DNA of 26,750 nucleotides, from the UHGV virus genome UHGV-1449992, one strand, 5' to 3'. This document shows, in pieces, positions 1 to 26,750 of this stretch; position 1 is the first letter of the stretch; each line of letters begins with the position of its first letter. The position numbers and the translations under genes were made by a program. The DNA comes from a virus. A model generated the notes under the pieces. That model was not told the DNA's origin. It was given only the letters and a program-made list of their open reading frames with translations, and made no database searches.

Positions 1-1
1 G

Positions 2-103
2 CACCATGAATCAACAAAGCAGCGCATCGACAAGCGCGGCACCGTGATCGGCTGCGATGAAAACGGGATGCCACTGGACCCGGCTTCTCATTGGTTTAAG
101 TGA
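2..103 (+). CDS. 3' end (33 codons) of an upstream ORF truncated by the window edge; product unknown (an HNH endonuclease often occupies this position before P27-family terminases, but this fragment alone does not prove it)
   Basis: Frame open from the window start to TGA at 101-103, translating ...HHESTKQRIDKRGTVIGCDENGMPLDPASHWFK*. Confidence 0.3.
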   Translation, partial: HHESTKQRIDKRGTVIGCDENGMPLDPASHWFK

Positions 104-285
104 TAACCATTATCAATACATCCCAAAAGTGATTGTCATTTGAAATCATTAGCATTCAATTGATATCAATTCTTATCTGAAGGGGAGGGGCGGGTCAAAA
201 GTTCAGAACCCTGAACCCAAATGACCGCCGCCCATCCTTTTTGTGCACAACCGCGAAATGAAAAGTTTTTTTCCGGGAGGTTCCG
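104..285. promoter_or_regulatory. Non-coding leader upstream of the small terminase gene; candidate cos/packaging-recognition region with nested dyad symmetry
   Basis: AT-rich stretch with the perfect 14-bp palindrome AATTGATATCAATT and TGATA-N5-TATCA, followed at 187-233 by GGGGCGGGTC..GTTCAG-AACC-CTGAAC..GACCGCCGCCC, a G-rich two-fold symmetric element. The six-frame ORFs here are short and overlapping. Confidence 0.3.
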
Positions 286-750
286 ATGGCAGGACGACGC
301 CCGAAACCGACCCACCTCAAAGTGGTCTCCGGCAACCCGGGCAAACGTAAACTCAACGATAAAGAACCGAGTCCGGCGCGAGAAATTCCAAGCCCGCCGG
401 CGCACCTGACCGACTGGGGAAAGGTTGCCTGGGGAAGGTTGACTGTTCTCCTTGACGGGATGGGGGTGTTGACAGTTGCCGACACCTTAGCCCTTGAACG
501 GCTATGCGATATTTACGCTGATATTCTTCAGTTGCGCGACACCATCGCAGTAGAGGGAAGAACCTATACCGTCCAGACCGAGGGTGGTTTTCTTATCAAA
601 GCTAACCCGGCCGTTTCGATGTTGGCCGATGCCGACCGCCGTTTTAAAAGTTACCTGGTTGAATTCGGTCTGACGCCAGCGGCAAGGACGAAGGTGAAAG
701 TGAATGGCGAAGACCCCGAAGAGGACACGCTCGACAAGTTCTTCGGTTGA
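286..750 (+). CDS. Terminase small subunit, P27 family
   Basis: 154-aa ORF MAGRRPKPTHLKVVSGNPGKRKL... recognised as a phage P27-family small terminase; sits directly upstream of and overlapping the large terminase. Confidence 0.85.
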   Translation: MAGRRPKPTHLKVVSGNPGKRKLNDKEPSPAREIPSPPAHLTDWGKVAWGRLTVLLDGMGVLTVADTLALERLCDIYADILQLRDTIAVEGRTYTVQTEGGFLIKANPAVSMLADADRRFKSYLVEFGLTPAARTKVKVNGEDPEEDTLDKFFG

Positions 751-2440
751 TCCTGCAACCCAATATGCGATGGATGTAACCTCGGGCAAAGAACTGGCTG
801 GTCCTGACATACGTAACTCATGCCAGCGCCACCTTAACGATCTGCAGTCATGTCATGCCCGTGGTCTGCACTGGGATGTTGAGGCGGCGCAACGCTCGAT
901 TGACTATTTTGCGAAAGTTCTGAAGCTCAATGGTGGTGATTTCGAAGGCGAGCCTTTCGTGTTGCTGCCATGGCAGTGCTTCATCGTCGGTTCGATTTTT
1001 GGCTGGAAAAACGCCAGAGGTTTTCGCCGGTTCCGAATGGTCTATGTGGAGTCCGGGAAGGGATCCGGTAAATCCCCTCTGTCTGCGGGTATAGGGCTTT
1101 ACTGTCTCACTGCGGATAAAGAAGCACGCGCTGAAGTTTATGCCGCTGCCACGAAGAAAGACCAGGCAATGGTCCTTTTCCGTGATGCGGTGGCGATGGT
1201 CGATCAGTCTCCAGCTCTTTCCGCACGTATTCAGAAATCAGGTGGTGCCGGGAAGGAATGGAACCTGGCTTTTCTTCAGTCTGGTTCCTTCTTTCGTCCA
1301 ATCAGTTCAGATGACGGACAGTCCGGCCCGCGACCGCATTGTGCTCTTATTGATGAAGTTCACGAGCATAAAAGCAATCAGGTTGTTGAAATGATGCGTG
1401 CCGGTACCAAAGGTCGTCGGCAGGCGCTGATTTTCATGATCACCAACAGTGGGCACGATAAAACGAGCGTCTGCTATGACTATCACGAATACGGCCGAAA
1501 GGTTTCTGCCGGTTCGATAGAAGATGACAGCTTTTTTGCCTTCATTTGTTCTCTGGATGAAGGAGACGATCCTTTCAAGGATGAGTCCTGCTGGAAAAAA
1601 GCTAACCCTTCGCTGGGTCACACCTTTGAAGAAAGCTATCTTCGTGAGCAGGTGACTCAGGCCCGCGGGATGCCTTCGAAAGAGAGCATCGTCAGACGTC
1701 TTAACTTCTGTCAGTGGGTTGACGCGGCTAATCCGTGGATGAGCAGTGATGTCTGGATGGGTTGTGAGGAGAACTTTGATCCAGATGAACTGGAAGGTGA
1801 GGAATGCTATGGTGGTTTAGACCTGTCCGGATCGCGTGATTTGACGGCACTGGCGTTGTTTTTTCCAAAACAACGTAAGTTGCTGGTGGAGTTCTGGACC
1901 CCGAAAGATACGTTACTGGAACGGGCCAAAACGGACCGGGTACCTTATGACGCCTGGGAGCGAGATGGTCACATCCACACCACACCTGGCAAAGCAGTGA
2001 AATACGGCTTTGTTGCCCAGCGCATTGCAGATCTGACTCAGAAGTTTGATATCAAGGCCATCGCCTTCGACCAGTATCGCATTAAATATCTTGAGCCGGA
2101 GCTTGAGGAAGCATCTGTTTCTGTTCCCTTAATCCCTCATGGGCAAGGGTATTACAAAGCGAAAGATTCCGGGCTGTGGATGCCTCACTCCATCGAATTG
2201 TTTGAAGAGTTGCTTGATGACAGCGTCATTATCATCAGGACGAACCCTTGTCTTCGCTGGAATGCGGCTTCAGCAGTGACGGAGGCTGATCAGAAAGAAA
2301 ACCGAATTTTTGCCAAGAAAAAAAGTACCGGGCGTATCGACGGCATTGTAGCGGGCGCTATGGCAATCGGTGCCTCCGAAGGCTATGAGGATGATTCTGG
2401 CGATATCGACGACTTTTTCAGTAATCCCATCATTGTGTGA
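704..2440 (+). CDS. Terminase large subunit (ATPase/nuclease)
   Basis: 578-aa ORF with a P-loop-like YVESGKGSGKSPL motif; position after terS; GAAGGTGA ribosome-binding site upstream of ATG 704. An alternative start at ATG 770 has no ribosome-binding site. Confidence 0.9.
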   Translation: MAKTPKRTRSTSSSVDPATQYAMDVTSGKELAGPDIRNSCQRHLNDLQSCHARGLHWDVEAAQRSIDYFAKVLKLNGGDFEGEPFVLLPWQCFIVGSIFGWKNARGFRRFRMVYVESGKGSGKSPLSAGIGLYCLTADKEARAEVYAAATKKDQAMVLFRDAVAMVDQSPALSARIQKSGGAGKEWNLAFLQSGSFFRPISSDDGQSGPRPHCALIDEVHEHKSNQVVEMMRAGTKGRRQALIFMITNSGHDKTSVCYDYHEYGRKVSAGSIEDDSFFAFICSLDEGDDPFKDESCWKKANPSLGHTFEESYLREQVTQARGMPSKESIVRRLNFCQWVDAANPWMSSDVWMGCEENFDPDELEGEECYGGLDLSGSRDLTALALFFPKQRKLLVEFWTPKDTLLERAKTDRVPYDAWERDGHIHTTPGKAVKYGFVAQRIADLTQKFDIKAIAFDQYRIKYLEPELEEASVSVPLIPHGQGYYKAKDSGLWMPHSIELFEELLDDSVIIIRTNPCLRWNAASAVTEADQKENRIFAKKKSTGRIDGIVAGAMAIGASEGYEDDSGDIDDFFSNPIIV

Positions 2441-2446
2441 GTCACC

Positions 2447-3766
2447 ATGAATAAAGATAAGAAGCCAGGCCGGATAAAAAGCGCCGTTCGCCGGTGGCTC
2501 GGCGTACCCATCTCACTTACAGACGGTGAATTCTGGGCTGCTTATGCTGGTGGGCAGTCCGCAGCAGGCAAATCCGTTACGGTTGATAAAGCCCTGCAGT
2601 TATCGGCAGTGTGGTCATGTGTAAGGCTGTTATCCGAAACCATCGCGACTTTGCCTGTAGGTTTTTACGAAAAAACGGCTGATGGTCGCCAGAGTGCAAA
2701 TGATCACCCGCTTTATGAGCTCCTCCATAATCAGCCGAATGCTGACATGACCGCTGTGGAGTTCTGGGAAATGATCATGGCCAGCCTTCTTTTATGGGGG
2801 AATGCTTACGCGGAAATCGACCGTACCGGAAAGCGTATTACCTCGCTTGTACCGCTCAGGCCAGAAAGGATGAAGGTTGATTTAAGTAGCAGCGGAGATC
2901 CTATTTATACCTACCGTGACTGGCCTTCAGGTACATCCCGAAACATTAATGAACGGGACATCATGCACATCCGTGCGTTCAGCACCAATGGTGTCATGGG
3001 CCTGTCACCTGTCAGTTATGCCCGACAGACACTTGGTCTGGCAATGGCAACAGATGAAGCCAGCGCAAAAGTTTTTAAAAATGGTATGCGGCCCAGTGGC
3101 GTTCTCTCAATGGATCAAATCCTGAAAAAAGAGCAGCGCAATGAAGTACGTGAAAGCATGGTTGAACAATTTTCTGGATCCATGAATACCGGGAAAATGA
3201 TGGTTCTTGAAGCGGGAATGAAGTTTCAGCCAGTTGACCTCAACCCGGAAGACGCCCAGATGCTGCAGTCCAGGGCATTCAATATCGAAGAGATTTGTCG
3301 GTGGTTCAGAGTATGGCCGGGGTTGATTGGACACAGTGCCCAGGGGCAGACAATGTGGGGAAGTGGCGTCGAACAGATGCTGATTGGCTTTTTAACGTTT
3401 TCACTTCGTCCATGGCTTACCCGTATTGAGCAGGCGATTCGTAAAAGCCTCCTGGCTCCGGGAGAAAGAAATAAGTACTTCGCAGAGTTTTCCATCGAAG
3501 GTCTCTTACGTGCCGACAGCGCCGCCCGTGCCGCTTTTTACTCAACGATGACTCAGAACGGTCTGATGACCCGCAATGAAGCACGGCAAAAAGAAAACCT
3601 TCAGCCAAAACCTGGCGCTGACCAACTAACCGTTCAATCCAACCTGCTGCCGATTGATCAGCTTGGTAAGTCCGGCGACAGTGAATCAGCCAAAAACGCA
3701 TTGCGGGAATGGCTTGGCATTAAATCAGAGGAGACGCCGGAATGTACCGGAAAAACGCAGCCATGA
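2447..3766 (+). CDS. Portal protein (HK97 family)
   Basis: 439-aa ORF directly after terL; sequence recognised as a phage portal. Confidence 0.9.
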   Translation: MNKDKKPGRIKSAVRRWLGVPISLTDGEFWAAYAGGQSAAGKSVTVDKALQLSAVWSCVRLLSETIATLPVGFYEKTADGRQSANDHPLYELLHNQPNADMTAVEFWEMIMASLLLWGNAYAEIDRTGKRITSLVPLRPERMKVDLSSSGDPIYTYRDWPSGTSRNINERDIMHIRAFSTNGVMGLSPVSYARQTLGLAMATDEASAKVFKNGMRPSGVLSMDQILKKEQRNEVRESMVEQFSGSMNTGKMMVLEAGMKFQPVDLNPEDAQMLQSRAFNIEEICRWFRVWPGLIGHSAQGQTMWGSGVEQMLIGFLTFSLRPWLTRIEQAIRKSLLAPGERNKYFAEFSIEGLLRADSAARAAFYSTMTQNGLMTRNEARQKENLQPKPGADQLTVQSNLLPIDQLGKSGDSESAKNALREWLGIKSEETPECTGKTQP

Positions 3767-4362
3767 AAGTAAAGGCATTCGACTTCGACATTAAGGCCGT
3801 CAACGATGACGGCCTTTTTTCTGGGTACGGTTCTGTCTTCGATGTGGTGGATAGCTACAACGAAGTCGTGGCGCCGGGTGCTTTCCTCGAAAGTATCGAG
3901 GAAACACGGGCGAAGGGGAGAACGTTCCCGGTTCTCTGGCAGCATCGCACCGGCGAACCCATCGGGAACTGGGACATCTCGACCCTGAAAGAAGATAAAC
4001 ATGGGCTTTTTGGTGAAGGGGCCCTGTGGCTTGAAGACGCGGCCTACGCGAAAACCGCCTGGCGGGGCATGAAAACCCGTGCCATTACCGGCCTTTCCAT
4101 TGGCTATTACGTCCGTGAGTCAAATTACGATGAGAAAACCCGGATCCGCACCTTAACGAAGCTCGACCTGGTTGAAATCTCCATTGTTACCGTGCCGGCC
4201 AATGATGATGCGCGTATTGACGTCATTAAGTCGAAGCTGTCACACGGTGATCTTCCTTCCTTACCTGAATTTGAGAAGTTCCTGCGAGAGGCAGGTTTCT
4301 CGAAAAGTCAGTCCGCCGCGGTCGCCTCCCGCGGACTGTCCTATCTTCTTTACCGGAGTTAG
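3742..4362 (+). CDS. Prohead maturation protease (HK97 family); ends at an in-frame TAG that is followed by 28 more sense codons in the same frame
   Basis: 206-aa ORF MYRKNAAMKVKAFDFDIKAVNDDGLFSGYGSVFDVVDSYNEVVAPGAF... typical of HK97-family prohead proteases; GAGGAGA ribosome-binding site before ATG 3742; 3' overlap with the portal gene. Confidence 0.85.
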   Translation: MYRKNAAMKVKAFDFDIKAVNDDGLFSGYGSVFDVVDSYNEVVAPGAFLESIEETRAKGRTFPVLWQHRTGEPIGNWDISTLKEDKHGLFGEGALWLEDAAYAKTAWRGMKTRAITGLSIGYYVRESNYDEKTRIRTLTKLDLVEISIVTVPANDDARIDVIKSKLSHGDLPSLPEFEKFLREAGFSKSQSAAVASRGLSYLLYRS

Positions 4363-4458
4363 TCCGGGGGCGAAGACGGCGAAACCAAAGCGGCTATTGC
4401 GGCGATGCGCCAGCAACTGAGCCAGTTTTCTCTCCCAAAAATTCTCTAAGGGATTTAT

Positions 4459-5679
4459 ATGTACCAGAAAAAATCGGCTGACGATCAGCCACAAAGTATT
4501 GGCGAAATCTCCTCCCAGCTCACCATGGTGATTGATCAGGTCAAAAACTTCGGCGAAGACGTGAAGAGAAAAATGGAGGCAGGAGAAACCGTTTCGCTGG
4601 AACTGAAACAAAGAACGGACGAAAGCCTTAATCAGATGAACGAGCTGAAAGAACGTCTCACTGAGCTGGAGCAAAAAGGTGCACGCCGCCCGAACGATGC
4701 ACCTGCACAGCGAAAATCGCTCGGTGAGCTGGTGGTCGAAAGTGAAGAGTTCAAAGGCATGGACAGTTCGGCCCGTAAGAGCATCCGCGTCAAGCTGGAA
4801 CAGAAAGATATTATGAACGTGCCGGCGACTACGGGCACTGGCGTGAGCGCAACCAACAGTCTGGTGGTCTCCGATCGTGTTCAGGGCATTATCGCCCTGC
4901 CGGAACGCACTCTGACCATCCGTAATCTGCTGATCCCCGGCAATACCGAATCTAACGGTATTGAATTCGTTCAGGAAACGGGGTTTACCAATAATGCTGC
5001 AGCTGTGGCGGAAGGTGTCCTGAAGCCAAAATCAGACATTAAGTTTGAGCTGAAAAGTGCGCCGGTACGTACCATTGCGCATTATTTTAAAGCGTCCCGT
5101 CAGATCCTGGACGATGCGCCCGGTCTGGCCAGTTATATCGATGGCCGTGCTCAGTATGGTCTTCGCTTTAAAGAGGAGCAGCAGTTGCTGAGCGGCGATG
5201 GCACCGGCGCGAATATCCTCGGTATTCTGCCGCAGGCAACAGAATTTGCTCCAGCGCTTACCCTGTCCAACGCCACGCCGATCGACCGTCTTCGTCTGGC
5301 TGTTCTGCAGGCTGTTCTTGCAGAATATCCGGCGTCTGGTTTTGTACTGAACCCTATTGACTGGGCAGGCATCGAGTTAACCAAAGATAACGAAGGCCGC
5401 TACATCATTGCGCAGCCGGTCAATGGTGGTGTTCCACGGATCTGGGGTCTTCCTGTTGTGGAAACTCAGGCTATGGCGCAGAACAACTTTCTGACTGGAG
5501 CCTTCAACATGGCTGCGCAAATCTTCGATCGCATGGATATCGAAGTGCTGCTCTCCACTGAGAACGAAGATGACTTTATTAAAAACATGGTCACCATTCG
5601 TGCGGAAGAGCGTCTGGCGTTAGCAGTTTATCGTCCGGAAGCATTTGTCACCGGTAATGTAACCGCTTCTGGCGGCTGA
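4459..5679 (+). CDS. Major capsid protein (HK97 fold) with N-terminal coiled-coil delta/scaffold domain
   Basis: 406-aa ORF; N-terminal coiled-coil ELKQRTDESLNQMNELKERLTELEQK followed by a capsid-like body; AAGGGA ribosome-binding site; position after the protease. Confidence 0.9.
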   Translation: MYQKKSADDQPQSIGEISSQLTMVIDQVKNFGEDVKRKMEAGETVSLELKQRTDESLNQMNELKERLTELEQKGARRPNDAPAQRKSLGELVVESEEFKGMDSSARKSIRVKLEQKDIMNVPATTGTGVSATNSLVVSDRVQGIIALPERTLTIRNLLIPGNTESNGIEFVQETGFTNNAAAVAEGVLKPKSDIKFELKSAPVRTIAHYFKASRQILDDAPGLASYIDGRAQYGLRFKEEQQLLSGDGTGANILGILPQATEFAPALTLSNATPIDRLRLAVLQAVLAEYPASGFVLNPIDWAGIELTKDNEGRYIIAQPVNGGVPRIWGLPVVETQAMAQNNFLTGAFNMAAQIFDRMDIEVLLSTENEDDFIKNMVTIRAEERLALAVYRPEAFVTGNVTASGG

Positions 5680-5686
5680 CAATTCA

Positions 5687-5710
5687 GGGCCGCTTAGCGG
5701 CCCTCTCTTT
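5687..5710 (+). terminator. Rho-independent terminator/attenuator downstream of the capsid gene
   Basis: GGGCCGC-TTA-GCGGCCC 7-bp GC-rich stem followed by a T-rich run, 8 nt after the capsid stop codon. Confidence 0.5.
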
Positions 5711-5721
5711 CTGAGGAGATT

Positions 5722-5979
5722 GTGATGGCCAGAAAAAATGTGGATGAACCGTCTGTATTCGACGGTAAAAATGCGGCGCCAGAACCCACTGAGGCCGGGA
5801 CTATTCAGGTTCAGCCTGTCCGGCGTTTTATGGATGGCGATATTTTCAGGACGCCCGCCGATGATCCTTTTCATGTCTCTCGCTTACGTGCTGCCGAGCT
5901 CAAAGGTAACGGGCTGGTGACGATAGTTGGTGAAGTCCCTGATAACAAAATGAACCGCGCCCCCGAAACCAAAGGGTAA
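5722..5979 (+). CDS. Hypothetical phage head-associated protein (85 aa)
   Basis: ORF between capsid and connector genes, same strand, tightly packed; no family recognised. Confidence 0.45.
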   Translation: MMARKNVDEPSVFDGKNAAPEPTEAGTIQVQPVRRFMDGDIFRTPADDPFHVSRLRAAELKGNGLVTIVGEVPDNKMNRAPETKG

Positions 5980-6317
5980 TGGTTATGACGGTAATCAACA
6001 CTGAAACAGCCATGGAACATCTCAGGCTGGATGATGAAATCGATAAAACGATGGTGGAGGGGTATCTTGCCGCTGCGGAGGATGCTGCTATGCAGTTTCT
6101 TAACCGACGCTTTTTTGCTGACCAGGCTGCTCTGGATAGTGCTGTTGAGAATGAAAGTGCCGGCGATCGTCCGCTTATCATCACGCCCTCCATTCAGAGC
6201 GCGGTTCTTCTTATAGTGGGCTGGTTGTATGAAAACCGCGGGGATGATCTGAGTCCTGATATCCCAGGACCCGCACGCTGGTTGCTGAATCCCTGGCGAA
6301 TTCAAATGGGTGTTTAG
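5979..6317 (+). CDS. Head-tail connector protein (gp6-like)
   Basis: 112-aa ORF (M)VMTVINTETAMEHLRLDDEIDKTMVEGYLAAAEDAA... resembles gp6-like head-tail connectors; synteny. Confidence 0.7.
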   Translation: MVMTVINTETAMEHLRLDDEIDKTMVEGYLAAAEDAAMQFLNRRFFADQAALDSAVENESAGDRPLIITPSIQSAVLLIVGWLYENRGDDLSPDIPGPARWLLNPWRIQMGV

Positions 6318-6326
6318 CCGGAGGGG

Positions 6327-6668
6327 ATGATGAAAATTGGACCAATGCGGCATCGGATCACCATCCGAAATTTTATTGCTACGCGAACACCGAGTGGTCA
6401 GCCAACAGAAGAGTGGTCTGACGGCGCCACTATCTGGGCAGAGGTAAAGGGAATCAGTGGACGAGAGAACCTGACAGCAGGAGCAGAAAGGGCAGATGCT
6501 ACAGTTCGTGTCTGGGTTCGATATCGCAAAGATATTTCGGCATCATCGCGACTTCTTGTCCTGAACGGCCCCTACAAAGGAGTGACATTGAATGTCACCG
6601 GGCCTCCGGTGCCAGATAGCAAAGGTACCCGGCTGGAAATTCTCTGCAAACAGGGGACCGAAAAATGA
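6327..6668 (+). CDS. Head closure / head-tail adaptor protein
   Basis: 113-aa ORF MMKIGPMRHRITIRNFIATRTPSGQPTEEWSDGATIWAEVKG... matches the phage head-tail joining family pattern; synteny. Confidence 0.7.
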   Translation: MMKIGPMRHRITIRNFIATRTPSGQPTEEWSDGATIWAEVKGISGRENLTAGAERADATVRVWVRYRKDISASSRLLVLNGPYKGVTLNVTGPPVPDSKGTRLEILCKQGTEK

Positions 6669-7114
6669 TTGATGTGAATCTGGATTTTTCCGGCTTAGAG
6701 GATATCGCCCGAGACCTGCAAATCCTCAGCAAAGCCGAAAACAACAAAGTCCTCCGGGACTCTACTCGGGCCGGGGCTGAAGTCCTCCGGCAGGAAGTGA
6801 TTGATCGGGCTCCTGAGCAAAGCGGAAAACTGAAGAAAAACGTTGTTGTCGTCACCCAGAAAAGCCGTCGCCGTGGGGAAATCGCATCGGGGGTCCATAT
6901 TCGTGGCGTTAACCCGCGAACGGGGAACAGCGACAACACCATGAAGGCCAGCAACAAGCGGAATGCTTTCTACTGGCGCTTCGTGGAGCTGGGAACATCT
7001 ACGGCCCCGGCACATCCTTTTGTTCGCCCCGCTTTTGATACCCGACAGGAAGAGGCCGCAAAGGTAGCGATGGAGAGAATGAACAAGGCGATCGATGAGG
7101 TGCTGGCGAAATGA
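6665..7114 (+). CDS. HK97 gp10-family tail-completion protein
   Basis: 149-aa ORF; 4-nt overlap with the upstream gene; recognised as HK97 gp10-like. Confidence 0.65.
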   Translation: MIDVNLDFSGLEDIARDLQILSKAENNKVLRDSTRAGAEVLRQEVIDRAPEQSGKLKKNVVVVTQKSRRRGEIASGVHIRGVNPRTGNSDNTMKASNKRNAFYWRFVELGTSTAPAHPFVRPAFDTRQEEAAKVAMERMNKAIDEVLAK

Positions 7115-7458
7115 CAGAGGATGATATCTATACCCTGCTGTCGCCGCTGGCAGATGGGCGGGTTTATCCGTATGTGGTGCCGCTTGGCAGCGACGATTTA
7201 CCCGCAGTGGCCGCTCCTTACATTATTTTCTCGATACCGACTGATGTTGCCGGGGATGTTTTCTGTGGGCAGGCCGAATCGACGCTGCACATTCAGGTAG
7301 ACGTGTGGGCAGAAACTAACGATGAGGCCAGGGCGTTGCGGCTTGAGGCCCTTTCCCGGCTGGAAGTGCTTTCACCTACCGAAGTAACCAAAATCCCCGG
7401 CTACGACACTACAACCCACTTGCATCGGGCAACGCTCGAAATAACGGTCATTGCCTGA
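7111..7458 (+). CDS. Tail terminator-like protein (DUF3168-like)
   Basis: 115-aa ORF with start overlapping the previous stop; position immediately before the major tail protein. Confidence 0.55.
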   Translation: MTEDDIYTLLSPLADGRVYPYVVPLGSDDLPAVAAPYIIFSIPTDVAGDVFCGQAESTLHIQVDVWAETNDEARALRLEALSRLEVLSPTEVTKIPGYDTTTHLHRATLEITVIA

Positions 7459-7477
7459 CTGGAACCAATCCAATCTG

Positions 7478-7497
7478 ACCGCCGCTGGCGGTTTTTT
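7478..7497 (+). terminator. Rho-independent terminator between tail terminator gene and major tail gene
   Basis: ACCGCC-GCT-GGCGGT hairpin followed by TTTTTT. Confidence 0.6.
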
Positions 7498-7514
7498 CAT
7501 TTATGGAGGCTGCA

Positions 7515-8225
7515 ATGTCAGCACTATTTGAACGCGCCCAAAAAACGGTAGTAATGATTACATCAGTGCCGGTCACTGCGGAAGAACTGGCATCAGCGAC
7601 CTGGCTCAACCTGAGTTGTACCATTAAACAGGCCAGCTTTACCGCTGGTCAGAAAAACGATATTGACGTGACAACGCTCTGCTCCGAAGAAACGGAGAAT
7701 ATCAACGGACTCCCGGCACCGTCTGAGATGTCTCTCTCCGGTAACTTCTACCGCAACCCGGCGCAGGATGCACTTCGTGCAGCATACGATAACGACGGCG
7801 TTTATGGATTTAAGGTTATTTTCCCGTCCGGAAATGGGTTCCTGATGCGTGCTGAGGTGCGTCAGCACACCTGGGATTCACAGGCAAATAGCGTTGTTGC
7901 TGCGACTTTCTCCCTTCGTCTGAAGGGTAAGCTGAGCAATATCGATGCCTCCGGCATCCTTGCATTTAGTAGCGATCTGCCAGTCACTGAATCAGTTACT
8001 GCCGGGAGTCCACTTTCCTTAAGTGTGGTGGCTACAGGTGGTAAAGCTCCATATACCTACGTATGGAAAAAAGGTTCGTCAACCATCAGCGGGCAGACCA
8101 GCGCAACGTTTAATAAGGCCAGTGCAGTTTCTGGTGATGCCGGTGTTTACTCCTGTGTAGTCACTGACTCTGCCACTCCGGCGAACGTTATCACCTCATC
8201 TGACTGCACCATCACCATCAGTTAA
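7515..8225 (+). CDS. Major tail protein with C-terminal Ig-like (Big_2-type) domain
   Basis: GGAGG ribosome-binding site before ATG 7515 (the six-frame ORF starts at 7503); C-terminal region ...SGDAGVYSCVVTDSATPANVITSSDCTITIS is Ig-like; position before the G/T pair. Confidence 0.8.
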   Translation: MSALFERAQKTVVMITSVPVTAEELASATWLNLSCTIKQASFTAGQKNDIDVTTLCSEETENINGLPAPSEMSLSGNFYRNPAQDALRAAYDNDGVYGFKVIFPSGNGFLMRAEVRQHTWDSQANSVVAATFSLRLKGKLSNIDASGILAFSSDLPVTESVTAGSPLSLSVVATGGKAPYTYVWKKGSSTISGQTSATFNKASAVSGDAGVYSCVVTDSATPANVITSSDCTITIS

Positions 8226-8255
8226 TGGAGCGCCGGGAAACCGGCGATAAACTTA

Positions 8256-8660
8256 ATGTCAAAACAGAATCTTAAAGCGCTGGCGCTGGCCCCGATGGCG
8301 GGTTTTCGTAAAAAAGAAGTCACCGTTCCGGAATGGGAAAACGCCAAAGTTATCATTCGTGAACCATCGGCTGAGGCCTGGATTCGCTGGCAGGGGATTG
8401 CCAGCCCGGAACAACCAAAACTACCGGAAGGGCAGGAAGCGCCAGAGGTGCCAGAACTGACCCCTTCAGAACGCGCGTTCCGCACGATGCGGGCAGATGT
8501 CACACTCTTCATTGATATTCTGCTGGATACCGACCTGCAGTACGTTTTCACCGTCGATGATACCGAACAGGTTGAAGCAATTTATGGCCCTGTCCATTCC
8601 CGGTTGCTGAAACAGGCGCTTGATCTCATTCGTGATGCGGATGATGCCAAAGCAAAGTAA
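8256..8660 (+). CDS. Tail assembly chaperone (lambda gpG analogue)
   Basis: 134-aa acidic ORF immediately before the tape-measure region, followed by an overlapping -1 frame ORF. Confidence 0.7.
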   Translation: MSKQNLKALALAPMAGFRKKEVTVPEWENAKVIIREPSAEAWIRWQGIASPEQPKLPEGQEAPEVPELTPSERAFRTMRADVTLFIDILLDTDLQYVFTVDDTEQVEAIYGPVHSRLLKQALDLIRDADDAKAK

Positions 8661-8968
8661 AAATGCCTGGCATGCAGTTCCTGATGGCGCTGGCGCTCCG
8701 GATGGGACGCACGCTGGGCGAACTGCGACAAACCATGACGGTTGGCGAATTCAGAATGTGGGCTGAATACGACCGTATCAGCCCGATCGGTGATATCCGT
8801 GGCGATATTCTCAATGCCCAGCTGGTTTCAGCGATGTACGGGGCGCAGGGCGGTAAAGTCACCATCGAAGATGCTCAACTCAAGTGGAGCACAGAAGAGG
8901 ATGAGGTAATCGACAGTGGCGATCCATTTGCCGGATTAGAGGCCGCTTTGCTCGCAGCATCGGAATAA
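8645..8968 (+). CDS. Tail assembly protein T-like extension, likely expressed as a G-T fusion by -1 programmed frameshift
   Basis: The -1 frame relative to G is open from 8645 to TAA at 8966-8968 and overlaps the last 5 codons of G; the A-rich sequence GCC AAA GCA AAG TAA AAA sits at the end of G. Translation ...MTVGEFRMWAEYDRISPIGDIRGDILNAQL... is gpT-like. Confidence 0.6.
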   Translation, partial: CQSKVKMPGMQFLMALALRMGRTLGELRQTMTVGEFRMWAEYDRISPIGDIRGDILNAQLVSAMYGAQGGKVTIEDAQLKWSTEEDEVIDSGDPFAGLEAALLAASE

Positions 8969-8983
8969 AATTGAATCGTCTCC

Positions 8984-9010
8984 AGCCTCGCTTCAACGCG
9001 GGGCTTTTTT
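8984..9010 (+). terminator. Rho-independent terminator after the G-T genes
   Basis: AGCCTCGC-TTCAA-CGCGGGGCT stem (one G-U pair) followed by TTTTTT. Confidence 0.55.
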
Positions 9011-9154
9011 ATACCCAAATTTCACCGCGCATCTCACGCGCACTTCACACAGAACCTTTCAGGATGAGCCTTGAGGATACCGGCTGGCTGTCGGTGCCTT
9101 TCTGTGGGCCGGATTCCTGTGAGACAAGGTTCATCACTAAAAGGTAATACCGAT

Positions 9155-9910
9155 ATGTCTAACATTGTCCCCATGAATTATGATGACCATTCATTCCCTT
9201 TTGCTTCTGATTGCTGGTTTAATGCCACAGTTGCTGCAAAGCATCACAGGAAGAGAGTGAAGAACTGGACAATTCTGGAGTCAACAAGGGATTACGTTGT
9301 CGAGTTGGCGCAAGAGCTTGATATTGAACCATTCAATTCTAAAGGGCAGATTTCTACCCTTTTAATTAGGATTGAGAAAGGCCGTTATGGCGGCACATGG
9401 ATGCACCCAGAGTTGGCCGTTGAGTTCGCCCGTTGGTTGTCAGTCAAATTTGCCCGCGCCTGCGACCGCCACATTAAAAATTTGCTGCTGAGTAAAAATT
9501 TTCAGCTCACTGAAGATCAGATTGTCGGCCTCATGGTCTGCCAGCAACCCAGTTCCTGGGAAAAAAGGTTTAAAGACCCGTTCTACCAGGCACTGTCGAA
9601 AATGTCCGGCATTCCTTATTTTGGTCATGTCGGCGGATGTCCGGCGTTGTTCGGTCAGATCACCGCTCGCTGGGTCTACGGTGTAGCACTTCCTGATTAT
9701 GTCTATCAGGCAGCTAAACAGGCAGCCGGCAACAGCAAGGAGAAGATTCATCAGCATCTTAAGCCGGATGCGCTGGAGAAGGTCGAGCAGCAACTGATCG
9801 CCGTCACAAACATTGCCAGTTGCAGCATTGACCAGAAGGACTTTGAGGCCCGTTGCATGGCTGCCTTTCCTGTCAAAGGGCAGATGAAGCTGCTGTATGC
9901 GGCGGCATAA
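9155..9910 (+). CDS. KilA-N domain protein (N-terminal KilA-N DNA-binding domain; C-terminal region possibly P63C-like); accessory gene
   Basis: ATG 9155 preceded by AAGGTAA. N-terminus ...FNATVAAKHHRKRVKNWTILESTRDYVVELAQ...RIEKGRYGGTWMHPELAVEFARWLS has the hallmarks of KilA-N; not a structural gene. Confidence 0.65.
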   Translation: MSNIVPMNYDDHSFPFASDCWFNATVAAKHHRKRVKNWTILESTRDYVVELAQELDIEPFNSKGQISTLLIRIEKGRYGGTWMHPELAVEFARWLSVKFARACDRHIKNLLLSKNFQLTEDQIVGLMVCQQPSSWEKRFKDPFYQALSKMSGIPYFGHVGGCPALFGQITARWVYGVALPDYVYQAAKQAAGNSKEKIHQHLKPDALEKVEQQLIAVTNIASCSIDQKDFEARCMAAFPVKGQMKLLYAAA

Positions 9911-9912
9911 CC

Positions 9913-10170
9913 ATGAATAACCGAATCGTTGAGTGCGCCTCCAGAGCGGGGCGCGACTTCTCTGAGTTCATGAAAGGCGAGAAGAACATGATGGAGGCGC
10001 TGCGGTCTGCGGAGGAATTCACCGAGCAGTTACGCATTCACGGCTGCGTTAATCACCATTTCGTCAATTTCATGATGATGAAAGCGATAATGAAGGTGTT
10101 CGACGATATGCAACGCGAGGAGCAGCGTGAAGAGCGCCGAAGAAAACGAGCAGAAAAGAAAGGCAAATAG
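9913..10170 (+). CDS. Small hypothetical protein (85 aa) with strongly basic/acidic C-terminal tail; accessory gene
   Basis: ATG 2 nt after the KilA-N stop codon (translationally coupled geometry); C-terminus DDMQREEQREERRRKRAEKKGK. Confidence 0.45.
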   Translation: MNNRIVECASRAGRDFSEFMKGEKNMMEALRSAEEFTEQLRIHGCVNHHFVNFMMMKAIMKVFDDMQREEQREERRRKRAEKKGK

Positions 10171-10186
10171 CCCACCCGTGTGGGCT
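10169..10186 (+). terminator. Stem-loop after the small accessory gene (weak terminator or RNA-stability hairpin)
   Basis: AGCCCAC-CCGT-GTGGGCT perfect 7-bp stem overlapping the stop codon; poor U-tract. Confidence 0.35.
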
Positions 10187-10202
10187 TTCATCGCTAACTA
10201 CA

Positions 10203-10253
10203 GCGATCCTTTTGCAGCCTTAGAGGCCGCTTTGTTTGCAGCATCAGCTTGAA
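10203..10253 (+). pseudogene. Remnant 3' end of a second T-like tail assembly gene (recombination scar)
   Basis: About 48 nt with 6 mismatches relative to 8919-8968; translates SDPFAALEAALFAASA* versus the authentic T C-terminus GDPFAGLEAALLAASE*. Confidence 0.6.
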
Positions 10254-10328
10254 TTAAACAACGATAGCTGAAGTCTTTCTTAACCAATGGTAGGATTTGA
10301 GTACTTTTCTACCTTTTGGGATAAAAAA

Positions 10329-10850
10329 ATGAAAAAAATATTGGGTGTTTTATCTTTAGTCGTTTTTGCTATAGCATTTATTATTGCGTTAAGGCAACCA
10401 ATATCAATCGTATTTCTTATTGCTGTTTTGGCGATTCCTTTAAAATATATAGATAAAATTGGCGGAGAGATTGCTTCTCTTTTGATAATATTCGGTTCTA
10501 TCTTTGTTTTGTTTTTTGTTAACTCAATGGTTCCTTTATGGGGGGAGAGGTATGAGAATCATGAGGAGTTAGTGAGAATTAGCGAGAGCGATAGGCAGAA
10601 AAGATACAACAATATGAATGTTATATCAGCAAGCAACTCTGGTGTTAAGTCTGCATTAAAAGACCCTGAATCCGCAACCTTCAAAAATCAGAGCGTTGGT
10701 CGTGAAGGGTATGTGTGCGGTCAGGTAAATGCTAAAAACAGCTTTGGTGCATACGCCGGGTTTAAAAGGTATGTAAGTAAAAATGGCATGACAATTATTG
10801 ATGATGGCGGATCTGAATTTTCGAAACTATGGGGCGAGATTTGTAAATGA
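10329..10850 (+). CDS. AT-rich accessory membrane protein (about 3 predicted TM helices plus a soluble roughly 100-aa C-terminal domain), function unknown
   Basis: ORF with visibly lower GC than its neighbours; hydrophobic N-terminus KILGVLSLVVFAIAFIIAL...IVFLIAVLAIPL...LLIIFGSIFVLFFV. Alternative in-frame start at 10287. Confidence 0.6.
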   Translation: MKKILGVLSLVVFAIAFIIALRQPISIVFLIAVLAIPLKYIDKIGGEIASLLIIFGSIFVLFFVNSMVPLWGERYENHEELVRISESDRQKRYNNMNVISASNSGVKSALKDPESATFKNQSVGREGYVCGQVNAKNSFGAYAGFKRYVSKNGMTIIDDGGSEFSKLWGEICK

Positions 10851-10870
10851 TACATTCTTGCTAATTAAAG

Positions 10871-10893
10871 AAAACCGCTTAGGCGGTTTTTTT
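10871..10893 (+). terminator. Rho-independent terminator after the membrane-protein gene
   Basis: AAAACCGC-TTAG-GCGGTTTT followed by a T run, directly upstream of the tape-measure start. Confidence 0.6.
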
Positions 10894-10911
10894 ATATCTG
10901 CGAGGATATAA

Positions 10912-13900
10912 ATGGCAACTTTACGCGAGCTTATCATTAAGGTTTCAGCAAACTCTCAATCATTCCAGACTGAGATCGCCCGCGCATCACGCATGGGGCA
11001 AGACTATTATAAAACTATGCAGAATGGTGGGCGTCAGGCTGCTGCTGCTGCGAAGGAAAGCCAAAAAGCTCTTTCCGAGTTAACGGATGGATTTGCTTCA
11101 GCGGGTCGAGCTGCCACAATTGCAGCTGCAGCATTTGCAACAGGAAAACTGGTTCAGATTGCAGACCAATGGAACTCAGTAAATGCACGGCTTAAACAAG
11201 CCTCAGTGTCTACGAATGATTTTACTTTATCTCAAACCCGATTAATGGCGATCAGCCAGAGTACGGGCACTGCTTTTACTGATAACGCTAATTTATTTTC
11301 ACGCGCGGCAGCATCAATGCGTGAATTTGGCTACAGCTCAGATGAAGTACTCAAAATCACCGAAGCGGTATCAACAGGACTAAAACTATCTGGTGCAAGT
11401 ACAGAAGAGGCCGGCTCTGTTATTACCCAGTTTAGCCAAGCGCTTGCTCAAGGTGTTTTGCGTGGCGAAGAGTTTAACGTGGTTAACGAAGCCGGGGATC
11501 GTGTCATCCGTGCCCTGGCTGCTGGTATGGGGGTTGCCCGAAAAGATCTTAAAGCGATGGCTGACCAGGGGCAACTCACGATTGATAAAGTCGTACCAGC
11601 ATTAATCAGCCAGTTAGGTGTGTTACAGGGGGAGTTTTCCTCGTTACCGCCGACAGTTTCCGGTTCAATGCAAAAAGTCACTAACTCCTTTATGGCATGG
11701 GTTGGAGGGGTAAACCAGGCTACTGGTGCAACAGACGCACTTTCTGGCGGTCTTGATGGGCTGGCAGGTACGCTGGATTCTCTTACATCTTCTGCTGTCA
11801 GCGGGGCCCTCAGTGACGTAGCAGATAATATGTCACTAATTACCACCGCCGCAGGTGGCCTAGTTGGGATCGGATTAGCCCGGTATCTTGGCGGGATTGT
11901 TACCAGCGCAAGCAGCGCTACTGGCGCACTTATTTCAGCCGCAAAATCTGAAGTAGCCCTTGCAGTAGCCCAGGAAAAAGCCGCGCAATCTTCCGTTGCT
12001 GCTTCCCGCGCCGCAGTTTATCGTGCCCAGCAAGCCCTTCAGAGTGCTAAAAGTGCAGATGTTCAGGCCGCACAACAGGAGAGGGTTGCAGCCGCAGAAG
12101 CAAAGGTTACTGCTGCACAAGGTCGATTGACTACAGCCCTCGCCACCGGGACAGCTACAGAAAAAGTACGAGCACGAACAGCTTTGGAGCGGGCTCAGGC
12201 CGGACTTGTGGCAGCAAAAAATGCCGATGCACAGGCTATTGCAGAAAGAAAACTTGCCACAGCTCAAGCGGCGCTTAGCCGTAATATTTCAGGTAGGGTT
12301 TCTGCTCAAAATAACCTTAACAGCGTTACCTCTGTCGGCACCCGGTTGATGAGCGGGGCTCTTGGGCTGGTCGGTGGTATACCCGGGTTAGTAATGCTGG
12401 GTGCTGGCGCATGGTACGCTATGTATCAAAGCCAGGAACAAGCAAGAAAATCAGCTCAGGAGTATGCCAGCCAAATAGATCAAATCAGAGAAAAAACCTC
12501 CTCAATGACCCTACCTGAGGTCGATAGTAATCGCAGATTATCGGTTGAGGCGATGCAGGAACAAAAGCGCCTAATCGAAGAACAAGAACGGAGCGTTAAA
12601 AGTCTTAACGGACAAATAAAGGATTTAAATGAAAGTAGAAACAAGCCAGGCATTACTCAAGAAAATGATTTGAATATTACAAAGGCTATCGCAATTCTTA
12701 CCGAACAGATTGTCGTAGAAGAAGACAAGCTTCGTCAGATGCGAGAAAAGGCAAGCGATATACTAAAGGCGCAGGAGGAACAAGAAAGAAGAAGAAACGA
12801 TCTTATTAAAGATCGCGCCTGGCGTCAAAATGCTGAATACCAGAACCTTGTAATGATGACTGGTAAGTATTCCGAAGTTAACCGTTTACTTGGATTGGGA
12901 AACCAGCTTTTAATGGAACGGCAGGGCTTGGTTAACGTGCCAATGCGAATGCCTCAGGCTGATTTAACATCTCAACAAACAGCCGCACTGGAAAAAAGCC
13001 GCCGGGATTTAGATCTCTCTACACGTAAAGGCGAAGACAAGGAGCGCACCAGACTTGGCTATGTTGCAGATGATTTGGGGCTGAAGGATGAACCTCAATT
13101 CCAGACCGGAAGACAAGAGATAATTAATAATGGCATTAAAGAATGGAAAAATAACGAGGCAAATAAACCCACCCGGAAAGCGCCAAAAAGCGAAGAATTA
13201 AAAGCCGCCGAGAAGACAGAAGATGTTTACAAGCGTCTTATTAAACAGCAGGAAGAACAAATCGCTTTGGGAAGCCAGAATACCGAACTGGCTAAAGTCA
13301 AATACCAGGTGACGCAGGGTGAATTAGCTTCTCTTGAACAAGCCAAAAAAGAAATAATTCTGCAAAATGCAGCGCTTATCGATCAGAAAAACATTGCTGA
13401 ACAGTTAAAAACGTTCCGTGAGGGGCTGGCTGACAGCAACGCTGCTGCTCGTGACCGGGGAAATATTGATTTTCTTGGCGCCGGGATGGGGGATAAGGCC
13501 CGCGACCGCATGAAGGAAATGGCAGATATTCGTACTGATTTTCTCAAACAGCAGCGCGACCTGCAGCGGGATTTCAGCAAAGGTCAGATTTCTGAGGACC
13601 TGTACAAACAGCAAACGGAAGCGCTTCAGGCGGCGCTTACTGAACGGCTCCAGATTCAGGAGGACTACTACAAGAAAACCGATGAACAGCAGTCAGACTG
13701 GCGGGCGGGGATCAGCGATTCACTGATGAACTACGCCGATCAGGCTGCTGACCTCAGTTCAATGGCTGCCACCGCAACCAGCGAAATTCTGGATGCCACC
13801 ACTAACTCTATCTCCAACAACCTGACCAGCGTCCTGACTGGTGCGACTTCGTTCAAAGATGGGATGTCGAACATTTTCAGCTCTCTGGGTGAAACGGTGA

Positions 13901-14493
13901 TTAAGACGTTGATACAGATGGCAACACAGGCGCTAATCACCAAAGCGATTATGGCGTCGTTCGGCGGTGGGGCTGGTGGAATGTTCGGGAGTCTTCTTGG
14001 CGGAGGTGGGGGAGGTGGCAGCACCGGGACGGCCATTCAGAGCGCTGGTGCTAATCTTTCGTTTAATGCTCTGGGTGGTGTCTACGATTCACCTTCACTT
14101 TCCGCATACAGCGGCGGTGTATACAGCACTCCGCAGTACTTTGCGTTTGCGAAAGGCGCGGGCGTGTTCGGTGAAGCGGGACCCGAAGCGATTATGCCCC
14201 TTACCCGTGGCGCTGACGGTTCGCTGGGGGTTCGTGCGGTTGGACGTGAGTCACCGGCAGTCCAGGATGCTGCAAGGCAGCAGCAGGAAAGACAACTTCT
14301 TTCAACAGGTGATATCAACGTCAATTACCACCTCACAGGTAAACCTGATGATGTGATGATGCAGACAATGGATGCCCACGGTCGCCGCCTGGCTAAACAG
14401 ATTAAATCTGAACTGACGAGCGACGTTAACAATCCTCAAAATGCTTTCGGTAGAGCACTTTACTCCAACCTTCAGCCCAAAAAACCACGATAA
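10912..14493 (+). CDS. Tail tape measure protein
   Basis: 1193-aa ORF, Ala/Gln-rich coiled-coil-like body, Gly-rich stretch near the C-terminus; position after G/T. Confidence 0.9.
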   Translation: MATLRELIIKVSANSQSFQTEIARASRMGQDYYKTMQNGGRQAAAAAKESQKALSELTDGFASAGRAATIAAAAFATGKLVQIADQWNSVNARLKQASVSTNDFTLSQTRLMAISQSTGTAFTDNANLFSRAAASMREFGYSSDEVLKITEAVSTGLKLSGASTEEAGSVITQFSQALAQGVLRGEEFNVVNEAGDRVIRALAAGMGVARKDLKAMADQGQLTIDKVVPALISQLGVLQGEFSSLPPTVSGSMQKVTNSFMAWVGGVNQATGATDALSGGLDGLAGTLDSLTSSAVSGALSDVADNMSLITTAAGGLVGIGLARYLGGIVTSASSATGALISAAKSEVALAVAQEKAAQSSVAASRAAVYRAQQALQSAKSADVQAAQQERVAAAEAKVTAAQGRLTTALATGTATEKVRARTALERAQAGLVAAKNADAQAIAERKLATAQAALSRNISGRVSAQNNLNSVTSVGTRLMSGALGLVGGIPGLVMLGAGAWYAMYQSQEQARKSAQEYASQIDQIREKTSSMTLPEVDSNRRLSVEAMQEQKRLIEEQERSVKSLNGQIKDLNESRNKPGITQENDLNITKAIAILTEQIVVEEDKLRQMREKASDILKAQEEQERRRNDLIKDRAWRQNAEYQNLVMMTGKYSEVNRLLGLGNQLLMERQGLVNVPMRMPQADLTSQQTAALEKSRRDLDLSTRKGEDKERTRLGYVADDLGLKDEPQFQTGRQEIINNGIKEWKNNEANKPTRKAPKSEELKAAEKTEDVYKRLIKQQEEQIALGSQNTELAKVKYQVTQGELASLEQAKKEIILQNAALIDQKNIAEQLKTFREGLADSNAAARDRGNIDFLGAGMGDKARDRMKEMADIRTDFLKQQRDLQRDFSKGQISEDLYKQQTEALQAALTERLQIQEDYYKKTDEQQSDWRAGISDSLMNYADQAADLSSMAATATSEILDATTNSISNNLTSVLTGATSFKDGMSNIFSSLGETVIKTLIQMATQALITKAIMASFGGGAGGMFGSLLGGGGGGGSTGTAIQSAGANLSFNALGGVYDSPSLSAYSGGVYSTPQYFAFAKGAGVFGEAGPEAIMPLTRGADGSLGVRAVGRESPAVQDAARQQQERQLLSTGDINVNYHLTGKPDDVMMQTMDAHGRRLAKQIKSELTSDVNNPQNAFGRALYSNLQPKKPR

Positions 14494-14513
14494 CCTGCCC
14501 GGAGGGAAAGTTA

Positions 14514-14987
14514 ATGGCGGATATTATCTATCCGGATGAGTACCTGCCTATGCCGCTGATGGACGGGTACGGTTTTAAGCCCATATCACCGATACTGCGA
14601 ACGGAGATGACGTCCGGTCGCGCTCAGCAGCGAAGGCGATACACCTCAACACCGACCCAGGCATCAGTTAAATGGATTTTTAAAACTGATGCGCTGGCGC
14701 AGGTATTTGAGGCTTTTTTCAGGGATGCGCTTAAAGATGGTCAGTCATGGTTCTATCTGAAACTCCAGACCCCCATCGGGGTAAAGCCCTATAAAGCCAG
14801 GTTCGTGGATATTTACGAAGGGCCGACGCTGGTCGCGCCAAAATACTGGCAGTACAGCGCAACGCTGGAATTATGGGAACGACCGTTACCGCCGGTTGGA
14901 TGGGGAAATTACCCGGAATGGCTCGCTGGTCAGTCGTTACTGGATATTGCGCTAAACAAAGAGTGGCCGAAGCATGACAATTCTTGA
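14514..14987 (+). CDS. Minor (distal) tail protein
   Basis: 157-aa ORF directly after the tape measure; synteny with distal tail/baseplate genes; family not determined. Confidence 0.55.
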   Translation: MADIIYPDEYLPMPLMDGYGFKPISPILRTEMTSGRAQQRRRYTSTPTQASVKWIFKTDALAQVFEAFFRDALKDGQSWFYLKLQTPIGVKPYKARFVDIYEGPTLVAPKYWQYSATLELWERPLPPVGWGNYPEWLAGQSLLDIALNKEWPKHDNS

Positions 14988-15450
14988 GCGGCTATATGCC
15001 AGCAGCGGTTCGGAGGTTATCCACGACACGCTGCAGATATCGGCTGGCGATGATAACTACTGGTTAACCAGCGGCTGGGATGACGTTTCCGTAACGTTGG
15101 AAAATGGTCAGCCGGCGACGTTTGAAGCCTGCGCGATAGAAATTGCACTGCCAGCGCGAAATGCGGACGGAACGCAGGATCTGAAATTCGCCCTGAGTAA
15201 TATTGACGGTGTCGTTTCTGGAGCCATCGATAAAGTTCTGGATGAAATGAAATCAGCCACGCTGACATTCCGGCGGTACATTTCATCAGATCTGTCTTCC
15301 CCGGCATCATCACCGTATACGCTCGATATCAAATCCGGCTCATGGACCCCGACAGCAGTGCAGGTCACGGCGGGCTATATGAATGTCCTCAAAACAGCCT
15401 GGCCCCGTAAACGTTACAACCTCGCCGAGCATCCGGGCTTACGTTACTAA
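14974..15450 (+). CDS. Minor (distal) tail protein
   Basis: 158-aa ORF overlapping the previous gene by 14 nt; synteny. Confidence 0.55.
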   Translation: MTILERLYASSGSEVIHDTLQISAGDDNYWLTSGWDDVSVTLENGQPATFEACAIEIALPARNADGTQDLKFALSNIDGVVSGAIDKVLDEMKSATLTFRRYISSDLSSPASSPYTLDIKSGSWTPTAVQVTAGYMNVLKTAWPRKRYNLAEHPGLRY

Positions 15451-15462
15451 CCTGAGGCAAAT

Positions 15463-15843
15463 ATGTTTAATCCTGATAAATACCGTTCAGTCAGCTGGCT
15501 GAAAGGCGGTCGCGTATACCCGCTACTCGACTGCTTCGGCATTGTGAATGAAATCCGGCGCGATCTGAAATTACCCCTCTGGCCCGATTTCGCCGGAGTG
15601 ACCAAAGACGGGGGAGGCCTCGACCGGGAGGCGAGAAGGTTGATGCTTTCCCTGCAACGCTGCGAGCCCTGCGAAGGGGCTGGCGTGGCCTGCTATTCCG
15701 GCTCAACGGTTACCCATGTCGGGATCGTTGTCATGCTCGATAACCAGCTGCAGGTCGCGGAATGTAATCCAGGCTCGGGGGTTACGTTTCTGCCACTGGC
15801 GCGATTCATACGACGGTTTAACCGCGTGGAGTTCTGGCAATGA
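15463..15843 (+). CDS. NlpC/P60 (C40 peptidase)-like tail protein
   Basis: 126-aa ORF with candidate Cys...His catalytic pair (LDCFGIV ... THVGIVV) in papain-like spacing; position equivalent to lambda gpK-type proteins. Confidence 0.6.
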   Translation: MFNPDKYRSVSWLKGGRVYPLLDCFGIVNEIRRDLKLPLWPDFAGVTKDGGGLDREARRLMLSLQRCEPCEGAGVACYSGSTVTHVGIVVMLDNQLQVAECNPGSGVTFLPLARFIRRFNRVEFWQ

Positions 15844-18917: not shown

Positions 18918-18946
18918 TACCCCATAAAAATCCCTTATTAACTCTT

Positions 18947-18972
18947 TTCGCTCAAACCCTCGTTTGCGCGAA
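18947..18972. other. 26-bp near-palindrome resembling a Hin/Gin/Cin/Pin-family invertase crossover site (left copy)
   Basis: TTCGCTCAAACC-CT-CGTTTGCGCGAA; half-sites match each other at 10 of 12 positions and fit the hix/gix pattern TTnTCnnAAACC-NN-GGTTTnnGAnAA as recalled from memory. An identical copy in inverted orientation lies at 26716-26741. Confidence 0.45.
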
Positions 18973-19300
18973 CGCCTTTTTTGGAGCAAAAAACATGGCC
19001 TTTAACCCGGAGCTGGGGAGCACGTCTCCCGCTGTTCTGCTCGATAACGCCGAGCGCCTGGATAAGCTAGTGAATGGTGATGTGCTGACCGAACCGGACC
19101 GCGCGGGCGTTGATCTGGATACTTGGCGCGGAATGATGGCGAAAAACGATGAGGTTAGGAAAAACCTGATCCCATTGAGTAAGCAATACATGACGATTGA
19201 GGCGGCGCAGGCTGATATCGCGAATATTCCAGAGGGGTCAACGACCTATGTGAGAAGCCCAGGCAATATAGCCCTGGCATTTGAAGTTATTAATAATGGG
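18947..19300. repeat. Left arm of an inverted repeat (leader plus 5' roughly 300 nt of the tail fibre gene)
   Basis: Leader 18947-18997 is identical to the reverse complement of 26692-26741 apart from a 1-nt A-run indel; the coding part is about 80% identical at nucleotide level. Confidence 0.8.
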
Positions 19301-22555: not shown

Positions 22556-22573
22556 TTCATTTCATTAACAAAA

Positions 22574-22608
22574 CATTGCGGCTGTCAATTCTCATGACAG
22601 CCGCAATG
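22574..22608. terminator. Bidirectional terminator hairpin between the convergent fibre genes
   Basis: Perfect 14-bp stem CATTGCGGCTGTCA / TGACAGCCGCAATG with 7-nt loop, flanked by A/T-rich sequence on both sides. Confidence 0.6.
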
Positions 22609-22614
22609 ACCTTA

Positions 22615-26741: not shown

Positions 26742-26750
26742 AGACCGGAG

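Follow-up and report, generated by a model that had tools for sequence, protein, structure and literature searches.

The window analysed here (a stretch of 26,750 nt) holds a prohead protease gene that closes on an amber codon, while the same reading frame runs on to a second stop shortly before the capsid gene. This raises the question of whether the amber codon is the natural end of the protease, a signal for recoding, a mutation of the prophage, or an error in the sequence.

The protease gene and its setting

The window makes up the first 26,750 nt of the ENA metagenome contig ERZ1742253 NODE_112_length_36597_cov_7.16, whose SPAdes-style name gives a coverage of 7.16 and suggests that the contig was built from short reads. 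It covers the late region of a Klebsiella prophage; E. coli genomes were also searched, and gave no match. The genes follow the order small terminase, large terminase, portal, Peptidase_S78 protease, HK97-fold capsid protein and head-tail connectors, and continue with tail genes, tape measure, a J-like protein and fibre genes. The protease gene thus occupies the place between portal and major capsid that is expected of the HK97 family (Table 1). Gene lengths agree with those of relatives for the 19 other genes from the small terminase to the gene after DUF1833, and further downstream in the prophage the larger ORFs are intact.

Table 1. Positions of the features discussed in the text (window coordinates unless stated otherwise)
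Feature	Position	Strand	Remarks
Portal gene	2447..3766	+	Overlaps protease start by 25 nt
Native prohead protease gene (HK97 family, Peptidase_S78)	3742..4449	+	235 codons + TAA; interrupted at codon 207
Truncated ORF as read in the window	3742..4362	+	206 aa + TAG
G+C-rich inverted repeat	4302..4345		Arms 4302-4316 and 4331-4345; 15 nt, 80% complementary
Three window-private G>T substitutions	4347..4360	+	Each TG -> TT
Substitution CTG>CTT	4347		Synonymous
Substitution GAC>TAC	4351		D>Y
Substitution GAG>TAG	4360		E>stop
In-frame TAG	4360..4362	+	GAG (Glu207) in all relatives; near-invariant RSES motif
Cut-off C-terminal tail	4363..4446	+	28 codons, SGGEDGETKAAIAAMRQQLSQFSLPKIL
Native protease stop TAA	4447..4449	+	Same stop in 94 relatives
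Major capsid protein gene (PF05065)	4459..5679	+	Substrate and assembly partner of the protease
Giant fibre-segment gene	18995-22555	+	1186 aa, GDSL-lipase domain
Second giant fibre-segment gene, convergent	22615-26724	-	About 1359 aa
Hin/Gin-type serine recombinase gene (Resolvase+HTH_7)	Contig about 26785-27336; L158 17791-18342		Adjoins fibre segment, just past the window

Counted from the ATG at 3742, 206 codons precede the in-frame TAG. A second in-frame ATG stands at codon 8, and the upstream start is favoured because the N-terminus MxRKxxAMK is kept among homologues. The reconstructed protease matched PF04586 over residues 15-169 with E=3.9e-42 and 144.6 bits (cutoff 21), and the gene as called carries the same family in its precomputed annotation. 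H68 in the motif WQH and S119 in the motif TGLSIGY are invariant across 22 aligned homologues, and we take these two residues, by assignment from HK97 gp4, to be the catalytic His and Ser. Codon 207 falls past the Pfam catalytic domain, in a C-terminal extension of about 66 residues. The deposited ORF, ending at codon 207, is therefore not the full-length product with the conserved tail. This exact 206-aa product has been recorded on one contig only, and the same 90% cluster is represented by 235-aa forms on hundreds of Klebsiella contigs.

Conservation of the C-terminal tail

The sequence-only reading had described a protease ORF that stops at this TAG and a frame that continues for 28 sense codons, both of which we read in the same way, and a capsid start at 4459, where an ATG is indeed present. 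It had placed the closing TAA at 4445-4447, but those bases read TCT and the stop lies two bases further on. It had also allowed for a chance origin of the open stretch. Under this explanation the TAG would be the natural end of the protease, and 28 stop-free codons are, by themselves, statistically not compelling.

Comparison with relatives makes a natural end at the TAG hardly credible. All 94 close relatives have GAG at codon 207, keep the 28 codons open in frame and end at the same TAA, and GenBank Klebsiella prophages of 94-99% identity have a 235-aa protease annotated over the same span, again with GAG at the TAG site, which agrees with the length of about 235 aa that had been proposed for the extended protein. 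The variants seen in the tail among the 94 close relatives are mainly synonymous (six) or conservative; of the four that change an amino acid, three are conservative (E>D, Q>R and S>N) and one, the P>L of a single relative, is not. A protein search at E<=1e-10 returned 2246 homologues, which among the matches listed were mostly 225-237 aa long. In the alignment of 22 homologues, with identities as low as 59% (Burkholderia phage phi1026b), the TAG hits the Glu of a near-invariant RSES motif, with Glu or Asp at this position in distant homologues, and the full-length homologues run about 26-30 residues past the site to a conserved FSLPx(L/F) end. Such an alignment had been put forward as the way to check the extension, and the C-termini were found to extend through the tail at every level of identity covered; proteases ending at the TAG position, with unconserved sequence downstream, are clearly not what it contains. 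Judged by these alignments, the extension after the TAG is real coding sequence, the conserved C-terminus of the family, and its conservation across the family implies that the tail has a function.

A private cluster of three G>T substitutions

The base change that creates the TAG does not stand alone. Three G>T substitutions lie within 14 nt, those at 4351 and 4347 standing 9 and 13 nt upstream of the one at 4360. Pile-ups of relatives were made in steps of 52, 72 and up to 88 sequences, and G was found at all three positions in 88 of 88. We also used an allele-neutral search pattern with K (G or T) at 4347, 4351 and 4360, which matched 49 IMG/VR contigs and 21 metagenome contigs; the bases were G,G,G in 70 of 70. 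The same pattern gave no match when searched against GTDB species representatives. The window allele itself is represented by the 30-mer CTATCTTCTTTACCGGAGTTAGTCCGGGGG.

The background in which these changes stand is nearly free of others. Over window 32-15679, an independent scaffold of 209 kb (L161, ENA ERZ28606639) departs from the window only at 4347, 4351 and 4360, and two Klebsiella genomes differ from the fibre region of the window at 1-2 positions over 7.8 kb. Differences from the 98.4%-identical relative Kp4866-6 are overwhelmingly synonymous and in the third codon position. Within the 8.9-kb head module, the only private base besides the three is an intergenic C>T at 174, and the chance that three of four private bases would fall within 14 nt under random placement is 3e-5. 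Further along, private bases of the window are scattered, of mixed type, or located at mosaic junctions. Other private clusters were sought across about 18 kb covered by at least 10 relatives and by near-identical genomes, and none was seen elsewhere, with the exception of bases 10-31 at the contig end and the mosaic junction 19123-19280. We thus rejected the possibility of a generally poor contig.

The three changes also share their sequence context. In the interval 4339-4398 all three TG dinucleotides became TT and the other 17 G's are unchanged, a TG-only pattern with odds of 1 in 1140 when three G's are taken at random, and of 1 in 20 when they are taken from the six G's of the 14-nt span. 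The D>Y replacement alone is not abnormal, because Y occurs naturally at this position in a Shimwellia homologue. Taken together, three changes of the same type and context on a background that is otherwise identical do not represent ordinary divergence; they indicate one event, of either technical (sequencer or assembler) or cellular origin.

These observations bear directly on recoding, another possibility raised by the sequence-only reading. A functional recoding site would be read through by means of a suppressor tRNA or leakiness, yielding two forms of the protease or tuning its dose, and the open frame after the TAG, by which the full protein is restored, is the one observation in keeping with this. 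Recoding sites, however, are conserved among relatives, and here a stop occurs at the site in 0 of 94 close relatives, all of which have Glu, and in none of the 70 public contigs. The D>Y and synonymous companions have no place in a recoding model. Two other window genes use TAG as their ordinary stop, and an in-frame TAG is absent from all genes but the protease gene. No tRNA genes were found in the window, and a search for a suppressor tRNA on contig 8995-32555 found only a tRNA-Pro(GGG), located on the further 5.8 kb past the window. We regard a recoding site as extremely unlikely, and programmed readthrough as effectively excluded.

Origin of the substitutions

A private cluster of TG>TT changes on an identical 15.6-kb background points first to a sequence error, which had been mentioned earlier as something to exclude by resequencing. 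We consider it likely that the three G>T changes, including the TAG, are a base-calling or assembly artefact and not a property of the phage, a cause that we infer from their pattern. This explanation is favoured because the changes are private to one low-coverage assembly, clustered, of one substitution type and in one context, each new base being the same as its neighbour, and because the other prophage genes compared keep their lengths. The phage would then have an ordinary 235-codon protease gene ending at the TAA, and Glu207, encoded by GAG, would merely appear as TAG in the contig.

The way in which such an error could arise is as follows. Four-colour Illumina sequencing has overlapping channels for G and T, and lagging (phasing) signal may mimic the preceding base; where a read is of poor quality, a G after T could then be called T. 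It has been reported that G is mistaken for T in later cycles, that the G and T channels are correlated and that phasing occurs (Kircher et al. 2009, PMC2745764). Runs of miscalls have been found to start downstream of inverted repeats or GGC, the miscalled base being equal to the preceding base in 49-64% (Nakamura et al. 2011, PMC3141275). The stretch that would have been miscalled lies directly 3' of a G+C-rich inverted repeat, a known type of trigger for miscall runs; the repeat ends 2 nt before the first changed base (4347), and it is a candidate trigger of sequence-specific miscalls. No GGC was present within 10 nt upstream of the changes. Viewed on the opposite strand, the changes are C>A before A, which would fit the other cross-talk pair, in combination with pre-phasing. 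At roughly 7x coverage, some stretches of the contig may have been built on one or two reads, leaving errors uncorrected. By a Poisson approximation with a k-mer coverage of 7.2, about 0.6% of positions, roughly 230 in the contig, have a coverage of one or less, and single-read stretches are thus to be expected.

Several considerations temper this explanation. A k-mer coverage of 7 corresponds by arithmetic to a read depth of about 11-16x, at which an artefact would need a local coverage dip, or a systematic and direction-specific miscall, in order to win in the graph. The contig is otherwise very accurate, with 0 other differences from the L161 scaffold in 15.6 kb. In addition, Y-family DNA polymerases such as the UmuC type make transient-misalignment (dislocation) errors in vivo, and these also copy the neighbouring base.

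The same considerations leave room for the view that the three G>T changes are genuine and stem from one very recent event in the Klebsiella strain of the sample, for example in an error-prone synthesis patch, with loss of the protease tail. We hold this to be unlikely, but by no means negligible. The T's stand in the deposited contig, which is so accurate elsewhere; umuD/umuC-like genes are carried by the prophage just past the window; and with a Pfam catalytic domain at residues 15-169, only the tail, implied by its conservation to be functional, would be lost. If the changes were real, the protease would have 206 aa, an intact catalytic domain and no last 29 residues. By analogy with other phages, the prophage would be blocked in head maturation and still be carried as a prophage. 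Duda and colleagues are said to have described, in 2013, a C-terminal capsid-targeting domain in the HK97 protease gp4. In Salmonella phage SPN3US, truncation of the protease C-terminus by an amber mutation left an enzyme that was active in vitro and absent from proheads (PMC7411985). Reasoning by analogy with these systems, the tail may be needed to load the enzyme into the procapsid, and the allele would then be a natural knock-out of the tail alone, a modest but usable probe of protease loading into procapsids.

Against a real mutation, it is implausible that three mutations arose independently within 14 nt when no other substitution relative to the L161 scaffold is present in 15.6 kb. The changes would have to come from one triple event, and such events are far rarer than single substitutions, of which none was seen. 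No other sample or isolate has any of the three T's (0/94). Specific routes to a real change were also considered. Oxidative damage prefers GG contexts, and oxidative (8-oxoG) damage is unlikely here, as the changed G's are in TGC/TGA and adjacent GG and GGGGG runs are untouched. No nearby sequence is able to template the change: when both strands of the window were searched for the mutant 21-mer, as expected for a template switch or gene conversion, the best match was 14/21, no better than for the ancestral sequence. A repeat-templated origin was rejected, since the base matching the TAG position is C, not T, in a direct repeat close by, and C is also what the partner arm of the inverted repeat predicts. 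Conversion from a donor gene was rejected as well, since a TAG-bearing donor would not exist among functional homologues. Two more elaborate versions appear very unlikely. In one, a living Klebsiella lineage would maintain a genuine amber allele and obtain a little full-length protease through low readthrough or a host suppressor; in the other, the cluster would be the footprint of the prophage's UmuDC-like error-prone polymerase on its own genome.

We therefore return to a sequencing or assembly artefact as the preferred explanation. One suggestion had been an amber mutation in a degenerating prophage. The base change GAG>TAG is of that kind, and "amber mutation" is right in this sense, yet it is most likely not biological. 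The degenerating part does not hold, given the 19 other genes of normal length, and a pseudogene of a decaying prophage is likewise contradicted by the intact large downstream ORFs and by a lesion present in a single contig. In practice, the record should be corrected to a true gene at 3742-4449 (235 aa). The 206-aa "HK97 family phage prohead protease" in public protein collections probably reflects an artefactual truncation in one contig. The case has little biological weight and its value is mainly practical: recoding candidates can be cheaply sorted from errors by asking whether the stop is private and whether neighbouring changes of the same type stand on an identical background.

Other features of the prophage

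At the beginning of the contig, window 1-31 differs from the otherwise identical L161 scaffold at 4 positions (10, 25, 28 and 31), and bases 10, 16, 25, 28 and 31 are private when compared to 18 relatives. Either the sequence at this contig end is of low quality, or bases 1-31 mark the margin of a mosaic junction at which the assembly was interrupted.

Window 8256-8968, upstream of the tape measure gene, contains two neighbouring ORFs, Phage_TAC_1 (134 aa) and Phage_tail_T (101 aa), in a layout like that of lambda G/GT, which usually involves a programmed -1 frameshift. A variable cargo island at window 9071-10850 separates the tail chaperone genes from the tape measure and holds a KilA-N/P63C protein and two small ORFs; relatives with an identical head module have Bro-N or other genes at this spot. 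One close relative, the Klebsiella chromosome CP146550.1, is without a called tail-chaperone gene and shows a 1-nt indel relative to window position 8310, and its tape measure gene is split into pieces of 875 aa and 335 aa. These lesions may be either real decay or homopolymer errors of that assembly.

The region at window 18946-26742 is bounded by perfect 47-nt inverted repeats (18946-18992 and 26696-26742), inside which lie 283-nt arms that are 79% complementary. It contains the two giant convergent genes of Table 1, and the serine recombinase gene follows directly. Two Klebsiella genomes (L159 and L160) carry the segment, at 99.97-99.99% identity, in the opposite orientation with respect to its flanks. 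From this arrangement, it looks like an invertible tail-fibre segment, which would resemble the G-segment of Mu or the C-segment of P1 as a host-range switch; here the switch would exchange whole fibre genes behind the J-like gene.

Past the window, at contig about 27825-32555 (L158 18831-23561), umuD-like (Peptidase_S24) and umuC-like (IMS) genes were found. The same end of the prophage has an SRAP-domain gene and the tRNA-Pro(GGG), followed by a chromosomal sulfatase gene. The chromosomal gene that comes next makes it probable that the attachment site lies on this side of the prophage.

Comparison with known systems

The protease of the window is like HK97 gp4 and gp4 of Burkholderia phage phi1026b (Peptidase_S78, MEROPS U35/S78) in its Pfam match. 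With the HK97 family it further shares the order portal-protease-major capsid, the His and Ser of WQH and TGLSIGY, and the conserved C-terminal extension. It is unlike the proteases of this family in having TAG as codon 207 and a called product of 206 aa instead of 235 aa, a difference that is confined to this contig.

Programmed readthrough of a stop codon is known in phage genes, an example being the A1 readthrough protein of Qbeta. The window resembles this type in having an in-frame stop followed by an open in-frame extension. In contrast to the A1 type, the stop occurs in no relative, the extension is normally joined through a Glu codon, and a readthrough product is not expected to be needed for this protease.

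[quoted passage not shown] SPN3US gp245, however, belongs to the T4-like protease lineage of a giant phage and was studied with laboratory-made mutants, while the window allele is known from one contig alone.

With published Illumina errors the comparison is between errors in reads and a pattern known from an assembled contig alone, and the inverted repeat of the window is imperfect, unlike triggers of the type described by Nakamura et al. In its close-set G->T changes, each equal to the preceding base and located just past an inverted repeat, the pattern of the window is nonetheless like the error runs described for that platform (PMC2745764, PMC3141275).
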